NCBI GenBank assembly: GCA_029856525.1
Contig: JAHQXC010000022.1
Location: 1-18,129 of the forward strand
Direction: 5' to 3'
Source: Candidatus Odinarchaeia archaeon
GTDB lineage: Archaea > Asgardarchaeota > Odinarchaeia > Odinarchaeales > Odinarchaeaceae
DNA length: 18,129 nt
Shown here: positions 4,003 through 18,129 of the stretch, piece by piece
How positions within the stretch are numbered: the stretch's first letter is position 1
Layout: every line of letters starts with the position of its first letter
Notes under the pieces: generated by a model
What the model was told of the DNA's origin: nothing
What the model saw: only the letters and a program-made list of their open reading frames with translations
Databases searched by the model: none
Position numbers and translations under genes: made by a program

Positions 4003-4091
4003 CTCTGGATCCCAAATCCAGAATCATACCAAGCTAGACTACCGCCCCTTTCTTAGTTGTTTGGAGGCTCGGGGGGGATTTGAACCCCCGA

Positions 4092-4121
4092 TTCGCCAAT
4101 AGGTCTATTCGACGACTATTT
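4092..4121 (-). other. 30-nt BHB-like intron at position 46/47 of tRNA-Thr
   Basis: Central helix CGUC/GGCG, bulges GG|A and AA|U, intron stem AAUAG/CUAUU. Excision gives variable region CGGUC. Confidence 0.85.
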
Positions 4122-4130
4122 CCGACGGAT

Positions 4131-4148
4131 CTCTCGGCTTCAACCGCT
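4131..4148 (-). other. 18-nt canonical 37/38 intron of tRNA-Thr
   Basis: Central helix CUUG/CGAG, bulges UA|A and AG|A, with the anticodon stem as exon helix. Confidence 0.92.
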
Positions 4149-4301
4149 TACAAGTCCGTTGCTCTAGCCGGGCTGAGCCACCGAGCCGTTAATTATTCAT
4201 AATCTATATTCTATTTTGTTATTTTTCAAAAATCAAATATAAAAACTTAATACCGGTTTTATAGATGCGGGTTGAATGTCTTCAAGCAGTTCATCGAGTT
4301 G

Positions 4302-15922: not shown

Positions 15923-17092
15923 TTAAGGGCATCTCACGATATCCCTACTCCAAAGGCATTCAGCGCAGGACGGCGTGTTACCGTAACAGTCCACTTCATT
16001 CGTGTTAGCGTAGGAGCATCCTTCTCTAGTCGGGCAGTCTATGCATGAGGGGAAATTGAAATCCGCTACTTTATTACGGAATCTCACATATTCCTCCTTC
16101 ATCCAGATGTCTTTCAACCTTTCATTTTTTATGTTTCCATAACTATACTTGTATATTATTTTCTCATGTCCGTTTATATAAGAACGGTATGTGTGAGCGA
16201 AATTATAGCATGGTGTAACATCCCCGTTTACGGTTATCACACACGCCTTATTTTTGATAAAAGCGCAGCTTCTCTCAGTGCGGATTTGAGTATCCGCTAC
16301 ATTAATTTGAATATAGTTTTTAAGGTCAGGTCCAACTGGAACCCATTTATAGATTTCCGCAGGGTCTGCTTGAGGATATAAGCTCTCCCCCATCATATCC
16401 TGAGTGTAAGGTAGCATGTTAGTGATCATGATTCTCTTTATCTGAAGGTCTTTAGCTATCGCTAATAGTTTAGGCAGCTCCTCTATATTCTGCCGCATAG
16501 CCACGAACTCCGCCCAAATCCAGGGCGTGTATTTTCTGATTTTATCCCGGTATTCTGCGAATGATCTTAAATTATTTATAACTTTACTCGCCTGAGGCCC
16601 TCTTATACCTTTGAAAACATCTTCGTTAACAGCGTCTATTGAAACAATCATATAGTCGAAGTTATCTATTATAAGGTCTTGGAATTTATCTATAGTCGTT
16701 CCGTTTGTAGTCAGTATTAACTCTATATTCGGCAGCTTACTTTTAGTAGCTTCAACTATCTCTCTAAACTTCGGATGGATTGTAGGCTCGCCGAGCCCTC
16801 CGAAAACAATTGTTTTAAGTTCAGGTAATTCAGTTAACTGGTCTAATAAGTTTAAGTAATCTTCGAAGAGCATCTCCTCCAGTGACTCCAACCATGATCT
16901 TCTAATACACATTTGACAGTTTAAATTACATTTATTAGTTAACTCCACGTAGACTTTTCGAATATCAGGTTTAGGCGGTATGATTAAAATATGGTCGACT
17001 TCATCTATGATCACTATTTTACCAAGAGGGCTTTGAGCAATCTTCTCTTTTACTTTCTCGATCAACTTCTGTAATTCTGCTTCCATAGTCAT
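15923..17092 (-). CDS. Radical SAM/SPASM protein resembling the tungsten-cofactor oxidoreductase maturase family
   Basis: CNLNCQMC (CxxxCxxC), GGLGEP, LTTNG, and a Cys-rich C-terminus PSCIDCP...C...DCYGNTPSCAECLWSRDIVRCP that I recognise as typical of that family. Confidence 0.82.
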   Translation of the reverse strand: MTMEAELQKLIEKVKEKIAQSPLGKIVIIDEVDHILIIPPKPDIRKVYVELTNKCNLNCQMCIRRSWLESLEEMLFEDYLNLLDQLTELPELKTIVFGGLGEPTIHPKFREIVEATKSKLPNIELILTTNGTTIDKFQDLIIDNFDYMIVSIDAVNEDVFKGIRGPQASKVINNLRSFAEYRDKIRKYTPWIWAEFVAMRQNIEELPKLLAIAKDLQIKRIMITNMLPYTQDMMGESLYPQADPAEIYKWVPVGPDLKNYIQINVADTQIRTERSCAFIKNKACVITVNGDVTPCYNFAHTYRSYINGHEKIIYKYSYGNIKNERLKDIWMKEEYVRFRNKVADFNFPSCIDCPTREGCSYANTNEVDCYGNTPSCAECLWSRDIVRCP

Positions 17093-17194: not shown

Positions 17195-17235
17195 GTATAG
17201 AGGTATTTTCTAAAAAATGAGTGGAGGTTTTTAAA

Positions 17236-17526
17236 ATGTCTACGGCTGAGGAGAAAGCTAAGCAAGCCATACAAGTTTTAACTATGATTAGCGAAGACAC
17301 CTCTGTGCCCAGGAATATAAGGAGGGCTGCAAGCGAATCCATCGCGGCTTTAACTGATAGTAGAGTTGAAGGGATGGCGGTTCGAGCTTCAAACGCTATA
17401 TCAATACTGGATGAAATCTCCCAGGATCCGAATTGCCCGCTCCACGCTCGCACAAAGCAGTCCTTTTAAAGGCTGCGTGTAAAAATCTGGAACGCGGTAA
17501 GCATCCTGGAGACTATAAGCGATTAA
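17236..17526 (+). CDS. UPF0147 family protein split by a 27-nt intron: join(17236..17455,17483..17526), 87 aa
   Basis: Family motifs [33 protein letters not shown]. The expected terminal helix [13 protein letters not shown] lies in the same frame after the in-insert TAA at 17467-17469. Confidence 0.88.
17456..17482 (+). other. Candidate BHB/BHL-type mRNA intron (27 nt, contains an in-frame TAA)
   Basis: Central helix GCAC/GUGU, bulges AA|A and AA|A, intron stem GCAG(U)CCUU/AAGGCUGC, distal exon pairing UCCA/UGGA and CCGC/GCGG. Confidence 0.82.
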
Positions 17527-17558: not shown

Positions 17559-18129
17559 ATGGTTAAAAATAATCTTAGACCGCTTCCTCTTTTACTCCCT
17601 TTTAGCACGGTGTTTATATGGGGGAGTATTCTCACCGCAGCCTTCTTGCATAGCGGTTTTAACTGGCCTGACAGTCTTCTAAGCGATTTAGGCGTCTGCG
17701 AGGTTAGCTATATATTCACGACAGGTTTAGTCGGAGGAGGTGTTCTAGGCTTAGTTTTCACAGTTTTCTATCTCAGCTATTATAGAAGCGATTTCACGCA
17801 TCTCATTAACGGTATTCTCCTCTTACCTACAAATATCTCTTATATTCTAGCAGGGTTGATCCCTATTAGCGCCGGTTTCCCTCATTATTTCTTCGCTTTC
17901 CTAGCGTTCGCATTATCGATTTTCATCTGCGGTCTTTCCAGTATACTTTTTATAGTTTGGAAAAAGTATTTTAAACTCGGAGTCTACGGTTTAACCGTTC
18001 TTTTAATAAGTCTGCTAATATGGGTTTTCATCAGGCTGCCGGGGTTAGCTATCACTGAAACCGCTGTAGGTTTGATGATTTCAAGCTGGTTTTCAGCTTT
18101 AGGAGTCAATCTCTATAAAAATGGGAGGC
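17559..18129 (+). CDS. DUF998-like multi-pass membrane protein, 3'-truncated by the window edge; absent from the ORF track
   Basis: Open frame from the ATG at 17559 to the window end, with FNW...LSDLG, GLIP...H..FA and PGLAITE motifs and several hydrophobic helices. Confidence 0.8.
   Translation, partial: MVKNNLRPLPLLLPFSTVFIWGSILTAAFLHSGFNWPDSLLSDLGVCEVSYIFTTGLVGGGVLGLVFTVFYLSYYRSDFTHLINGILLLPTNISYILAGLIPISAGFPHYFFAFLAFALSIFICGLSSILFIVWKKYFKLGVYGLTVLLISLLIWVFIRLPGLAITETAVGLMISSWFSALGVNLYKNGR

Follow-up and report, generated by a model that had tools for sequence, protein, structure and literature searches.

The cbf5 pre-mRNA intron of Crenarchaeota was reportedly described by Watanabe in 2002. 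Within the literature that can be searched, crenarchaeal cbf5 is the only confirmed case of coding-sequence splicing in archaea, alongside one confirmed case in a 5' UTR and a few others that are predicted (PMC2738675, PMC7714728). The cbf5 pre-mRNA introns are found in Desulfurococcales and Sulfolobales (Yokobori 2009, PMC2738675), and in Haloferax volcanii a 46-nt BHB intron in the 5' UTR of HVO_1309 has been confirmed in vitro and by circRNA-seq, a method that samples short circles poorly (Schwarz 2020, PMC7714728). Asgard tRNA genes carry non-canonical and multiple introns (Valentin-Alvarado 2024, PMC11291895; bioRxiv 10.64898/2026.10.13.758758), and neither these papers nor the one on the closed Odinarchaeum genome (PMC9246712) mentions introns in protein genes. 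Our literature search found no paper that links UPF0147 with introns, in agreement with an earlier reading of the present locus (the sequence-only reading), which knew of no intron in this family.

Here we analyse an 18,129-nt stretch of DNA from Candidatus Odinarchaeia archaeon (GCA_029856525.1, contig JAHQXC010000022.1; the window), in which a UPF0147 gene is interrupted by a 27-nt insert that is probably a BHB-type intron. It resembles the cbf5 intron in being short and of BHB type with an often relaxed motif, in lying within a protein-coding sequence, in having a host with a heteromeric broad-specificity endonuclease, in that its removal would restore a conserved protein, and in its lineage-specific gain and loss. 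It differs in its gene (UPF0147) and its phylum (Asgardarchaeota), in that UPF0147 is interrupted at two sites in different lineages and at least four other genes of the genome are interrupted as well, and in that cbf5 splicing has been experimentally demonstrated whereas UPF0147 splicing is inferred from sequence. This genome has no cbf5 intron of its own, its cbf5 gene on contig C91 being an uninterrupted 331-codon frame. The UPF0147 intron would work like that of cbf5 but is a separate intron. Like the HVO_1309 intron, it would be a target of the archaeal splicing endonuclease that lies in mRNA and not in tRNA or rRNA, but the HVO_1309 intron is in a UTR, leaves the reading frame uninterrupted and has a euryarchaeal host. 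With Asgard tRNA introns it shares the phylum, the presumed enzymes and the BHB boundaries, and its mini-intron size is similar, although the papers that describe them (PMC11291895; bioRxiv 10.64898/2026.10.13.758758) concern tRNA genes only.

The UPF0147 ORF (plus strand, 17236-17526) starts at an ATG at 17236 and meets an in-frame TAA at 17467-17469, after HARTKQSF; past this early stop, 18 more codons in the same frame lead to a TAA at 17524-17526, and the last helix of the UPF0147 family lies in this downstream segment with the frame unchanged. In a Pfam search, the 81 positions of PF03685 are covered from 2 to 81 only when the stop is read through, in a full-length match of 102.7 bits (gathering cut-off, 23.6 bits) with the insert looped out; the 77-aa ORF scores 95 bits, its coverage ending at profile position 70. 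Exon 1 alone matches profile positions 2-70 (2e-27), and exon 2, which aligns with the last helix of the solved structure 2qzg, is needed to recover positions 71-81. Alignment with 12 uninterrupted Asgard homologues shows a clean 9-codon gap between HART and K/R-IW, and 2qzg, its last helix included, shows the identical 9-residue gap; the insert (17456-17482) is absent from every uninterrupted homologue examined. Two claims of the sequence-only reading are thereby borne out: that the frame stops early with the family's last helix following in frame, which the sequence, PF03685, the homologues and 2qzg all confirm, and that the interruption consists of the 27 nt around the TAA, which match the 9-codon gap against the 12 homologues exactly.

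UPF0147 is present as a single copy in this 1.32-Mb, 93%-complete genome. The predicted splice would remove 17456-17482 and join CGC ACA A to AA AUC UGG, so that CGCACAA directly precedes AAATCTGG at the spliced junction and the product reads HARTK/IW over a full length of 87 aa. The unspliced mRNA encodes 77 aa without the last helix, the form in which the gene-called product is present in public collections, and full readthrough would encode 96 aa. The parts of the gene are as follows:

17224 to 17229, plus strand: putative Shine-Dalgarno-like GGAGGT, 6 nt upstream of the ATG
17236 to 17455, plus strand: predicted exon 1, with codons 1-73 and the first base of Lys74, ending in the bulge bases AA
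17456 to 17482, plus strand: predicted 27-nt BHB-type intron, present in 4/4 species of the genus and absent from the uninterrupted homologues examined
17467 to 17469, plus strand: in-frame TAA stop inside the intron loop; one of the four species has TGA here, the other three TAA
17483 to 17526, plus strand: predicted exon 2, with the last two bases of Lys74, 13 residues and the TAA

The gene is flanked by genes for a radical SAM/SPASM protein (15923-17092, minus strand) and a DUF998 membrane protein (17559-18128, plus strand), and this order of neighbours is repeated in same-genus contigs of other runs.

In the BHB layout, as in pre-tRNA, each cut site is on the 3' side of its strand of the central helix, and we read the insert likewise. 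The MFE fold of 17436-17502 pairs GCAC (17450-17453) with GUGU (17477-17480), leaves AAA (17454-17456) bulged and forms a hairpin at 17457-17476, with these elements:

17437 to 17444, plus strand: 5' strand of the distal exon-exon helix, paired with 17488-17491 and 17494-17497 in MFE folds
17450 to 17453, plus strand: exonic 5' strand (GCAC) of the central BHB helix, paired with GUGU at 17477-17480
17454 to 17456, plus strand: 5' bulge AAA, unpaired in the MFE fold, predicted cut after 17455
17457 to 17476, plus strand: intron hairpin in the MFE fold, inner helix h' of 8 positions with an A/U-rich loop
17477 to 17480, plus strand: intronic 3' strand (GUGU) of the central BHB helix
17481 to 17483, plus strand: 3' cut-site triplet AAA within a larger internal loop, predicted cut after 17482

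The central helix is exactly 4 bp long (GCAC/GUGU, invariant in four species), the 3-nt AAA bulge at 17454-17456 separates it from h', and canonical cuts are predicted to yield a functional product. At the 3' cut site no outer-helix pair abuts 17484, and the site belongs instead to an internal loop, 5x7 here and 3x5 in G003, that precedes the distal 8-bp helix (17437-17444/17488-17497). The motif is therefore a relaxed BHB (HBh') and not a strict hBHBh', and its cleavage would depend on a broad-specificity enzyme, since no outer helix abuts the 3' site. The endonuclease substrate geometry claimed in the sequence-only reading thus holds for the 4-bp helix and the 5' AAA bulge and fails for the 3' AAA, which is not a closed bulge; the 8-bp intron stem with one bulged U that it also claimed stands as one of two readings, the alternative to 4+4 bp and a bulged U17461 being 8 positions that include one U-G pair and one C.A mismatch. 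The 4-bp helix, the 3-nt bulge and the abutting hairpin appear in the MFE fold of the window's copy and of 6 of 7 relatives.

How readily would such a motif arise by chance? Counted as a 4-bp helix with 3-nt bulges and no fewer than 6 abutting stem pairs, it occurs at 3.2e-3 of positions in the genome for introns of 17-67 nt and at 1.3e-3 for introns of 20-40 nt. A lone motif is unremarkable; that one should by chance coincide exactly with both ends of an insert whose limits the protein sets is unlikely, and that this should happen at three distinct inserts is very unlikely. An Rfam gathering search of the whole window gave no family match at the insert and found only a tRNA at 4065-4187. At 27 nt the insert is far below the size of a ribozyme (group I or group II intron). 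A repeat or mobile element was considered and rejected, as blastn-short of the motif against the genome returned the self-match only, with no second copy of the insert.

The class Odinarchaeia is represented by only 7 species genomes in the collection searched. Within the genus, the 27-nt insert occupies one and the same position in all four species genomes and has the stop in its loop. The alignment of orthologs answers a question raised in the sequence-only reading, whether the insert varies in sequence and keeps its BHB and its position: it does so in 4/4 species. Across these four species 97.5% of structure cells form pairs, a share that drops to 20-49% once the partners are slid, and the figure for the intron hairpin is 93.8%; one stem pair appears as U-A, U-G and C-G across the genus, and the central helix is invariant. 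In a shuffle control for genus covariation the result was not significant (282/500), there being four closely related sequences and one compensatory pair, and we therefore regard the covariation within the genus as supportive and not decisive. The distal helix keeps 8/8 pairs in the four species, one of them via a C-G to U-G change, but this conservation is weak evidence because the helix lies wholly in coding sequence. Contigs of extra strains with the 77-aa product carry an intron identical to that of G001 and so give no added covariation.

Is the insert constrained as RNA or as protein? Five of its codons vary among the four species, two of them synonymously only and three with a changed amino acid (Q/L, S/P and F/C/Y), and base pairing is retained throughout these changes; in exon 1, 44 codons vary, 39 synonymously only and 5 with a changed amino acid. 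The constraint on the insert is thus at the level of RNA and not of protein. This pattern speaks against programmed stop-codon readthrough, in which the TAA or TGA would be translated and the 96-aa product would have 9 extra residues ahead of the last helix, and which we consider highly improbable. Readthrough accords with an insert of 27 nt, which is in frame, and with an exon 2 that is clearly translated, and for this genus alone the case from sequence against the 96-aa product is one of probability; a C-terminal tryptic peptide could not separate readthrough from splicing, because Lys precedes the peptide in both products. Yet the insert codons drift at the protein level while pairing is kept, the stop alternates between TAA and TGA, and two further groups of inserts, one in homologues and one elsewhere in this genome, are of lengths that three does not divide.

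The first of these groups lies in the sister family, G004-G006, and in G012, a member of the Asgard phylum from outside the class Odinarchaeia. In these genomes UPF0147 gives split Pfam matches, with 31- and 29-nt inserts between QDP and NCP (loci L033-L036), a site 27 nt upstream of the RTK/IW site in the mature mRNA. Readthrough cannot rescue these copies, because 31 and 29 nt shift the frame, and their RNA geometry is like that of the genus insert: AUCC/GGAU or ACCC/GGGU, a 3-nt bulge, a 9-bp hairpin and a 3-nt triplet. This BHB layout is the MFE structure in 3/4 of the inserts, 100% of the counted cells are paired, and three pairs are changed on both sides; one of these compensatory pairs is in the central helix, where the exon has a synonymous GAU/GAC change and the intron the matching one. 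In G006 the bulges are AAU and AUA, and the invariant Asn codon (Asn66) is restored only by a cut after the second base; since these bulges, not being homopolymers, allow only that cut, the canonical cut positions are fixed independently. The cut after the second bulge base that had been proposed for the window, giving HARTK/IW and 87 aa, gains support from this Asn codon.

The G012 protein is closest to uninterrupted Baldrarchaeota copies (85%, against 75% to the sister family), and its insert-bearing gene is accordingly not a recent transfer from the sister family. Both UPF0147 sites are phase 1, and the 5' exon ends in CAA at both; site preference, intron sliding or chance are candidate reasons for this likeness. 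A survey of 400 genomes of the phylum found no interrupted UPF0147 beyond the genus, G004-G006 and G012. Among the best 80 loci in a scan of species-genome contigs (Asgard and Thermoproteota), only Odinarchaeia loci were interrupted, and the best 80 loci in a metagenome scan with exon 1 were all uninterrupted, none closer than 77%, with no Odinarchaeia variants. Five genomes with two UPF0147 matches (G102, G187, G201, G210 and G232) were considered as carriers of split genes and hold full-length duplicates instead.

The second group comes from a genome-wide BHB scan with an ORF-repair filter, the strict rules of which miss relaxed motifs. It gave 345 candidates, mostly chance joins at gene boundaries, and recovered the UPF0147 intron. 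Four candidates with BHB inserts of 29-32 nt were examined with Pfam:

Contig C23, 3669 to 3697, minus strand (L211): 29-nt insert in a gatA-like Amidase gene, Pfam Amidase exons 2-153 and 156-445
Contig C123, 4019 to 4047, plus strand (L213): 29-nt insert in gcvPA, GDC-P profile 9-99 and 101-426
Contig C27, 13284 to 13315, minus strand (L214): 32-nt insert in kae1, TsaD profile 7-61 and 64-264
Contig C124, 8175 to 8203, minus strand (L212): 29-nt insert in a PflX-like radical SAM gene, the predicted splice restoring the Cys motif

In gatA, gcvPA and kae1 the Pfam profile coordinates of the two flanking exons are contiguous, and the gatA-like insert falls inside the GSDTGG/S/VRQPA motif. None of the four inserts, at 29 or 32 nt, is divisible by three, which again argues against readthrough. 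At least four further protein genes of the genome thus carry BHB inserts.

ARAGORN with intron search found only 19 tRNAs in the 93%-complete genome and called 14 of them with introns, although some of these calls are plainly spurious. Non-canonical or multiple introns probably conceal most of the tRNA genes, and these figures fit a lineage rich in tRNA introns. The tRNA that Rfam finds in the window (4065-4187, minus strand, 123 nt, 46.8 bits) is missed by ARAGORN and therefore very probably holds at least one intron.

Beyond the early stop, 7 of the 14 codons of exon 2 vary among the four species, and all seven vary synonymously, with no amino acid changed, so exon 2 is translated in that frame and is under purifying selection beyond the stop. 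These codons bear on a second alternative, to which we give a slightly smaller chance again, that the truncated 77-aa protein is the real product and the 14 downstream codons are untranslated. The 77-aa product appears as called in public collections, and the truncated ORF still reaches 95 bits against PF03685. Besides its 7/7 synonymous codons, however, the downstream segment has a conserved terminal stop, and it is the family's last helix, seen in the solved structure 2qzg and present in every uninterrupted homologue examined.

A decaying pseudogene, or an assembly or sequencing artefact, is a slimmer prospect still. Either would typically show itself in a MAG by an in-frame stop, but here the gene is the sole UPF0147 copy in the genome, strong purifying selection acts on both exons, and the insert recurs in four species genomes, one of which is a closed chromosome of 1.418 Mb (1,418,269 bases, single contig). 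Searches of public runs listed one DNA run with this stretch and no RNA run. This DNA run is the likely source and may be the source sample; a separate contig assembly of it covers the gene without differences, and at least two further public runs have contigs with the G001 version of the insert; the insert is therefore not an assembly artefact. Translational bypassing (ribosome hopping), which has a precedent in phage T4 gene 60 and would here take the ribosome from Lys AAG across the hairpin to Lys AAA, is scarcely credible: a hairpin with a stop codon does lie between two Lys codons 27 nt apart, but the stop is four codons beyond the would-be take-off codon and not adjacent to it, take-off and landing codons that match are absent at QDP/NCP in G004-G006 and G012, and the endonuclease motif geometry is matched base for base in all three insert types.

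Splicing of the insert as a BHB intron calls for an endonuclease and a ligase, and the genome encodes both. Two EndA paralogues (PF01974) of 188 and 187 aa lie on contigs C56 and C61; by our reading, the catalytic Tyr/His/Lys pattern is complete in one and without its His in the other, which would make an (alpha-beta)2 arrangement. Asgard archaea have an (alpha-beta)2 EndA in which a loop confers broad specificity for relaxed motifs (Kaneta et al. 2018, PMC5829648), and the insert fits the relaxed HBh' class that such loop-bearing (alpha-beta)2 enzymes cut (PMC5829648). The RtcB ligase gene (contig C95, 1-1311, minus strand, locus L049) runs off the contig end. An apparent intein lies in it directly after the GYDINC motif.

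We propose that in the pre-mRNA the exonic GCAC would pair with the intronic GUGU, the AAA bulge and the 8-bp intron hairpin completing the relaxed HBh'; that the heteromeric (alpha-beta)2 tRNA-splicing endonuclease would cut after the second base of each AAA; and that RtcB would ligate the exons across CGC ACA A and AA AUC UGG, giving the full-length 87-aa protein. We infer the splicing itself, and put the probability that EndA cleaves and RtcB ligates the UPF0147 pre-mRNA at about 0.88. The BHB-type intron first suggested by the sequence-only reading is supported by conservation in the genus, selection on exon 2, the second site, the EndA and RtcB genes and the sibling introns. Its further idea that the UPF0147 gene 'reports' splicing activity is speculation.

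The UPF0147 intron would add a new gene family and a new phylum to the archaeal coding-sequence BHB introns, and it is probably one of several mRNA mini-introns that this genome carries. Asgard archaea are the closest known relatives of eukaryotes, and the genes interrupted in them include the widely conserved UPF0147 and the core genes kae1 and gatA. Any bearing on the origins of eukaryotic introns would be only indirect, because these introns are not spliceosomal. A bolder and rather unlikely reading is that BHB mini-introns are actively spreading in Odinarchaeia and neighbouring Asgard lineages, repeatedly inserting into protein genes; it draws on the two sites 27 nt apart in the 87-codon UPF0147, together with gatA, gcvPA, kae1, the radical SAM gene and others, and it needs a route such as reverse splicing followed by retro-insertion. 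Were such spread real, in-frame stops would tie the production of several core proteins to tRNA-splicing capacity. If the introns are as we read them, gene callers would truncate or split such genes, as with the 77-aa product in public collections, EndA and RtcB would mature mRNAs in this lineage as a matter of routine and not as a curiosity, and the lineage would offer a natural system for studying the gain of protein-spliced introns.
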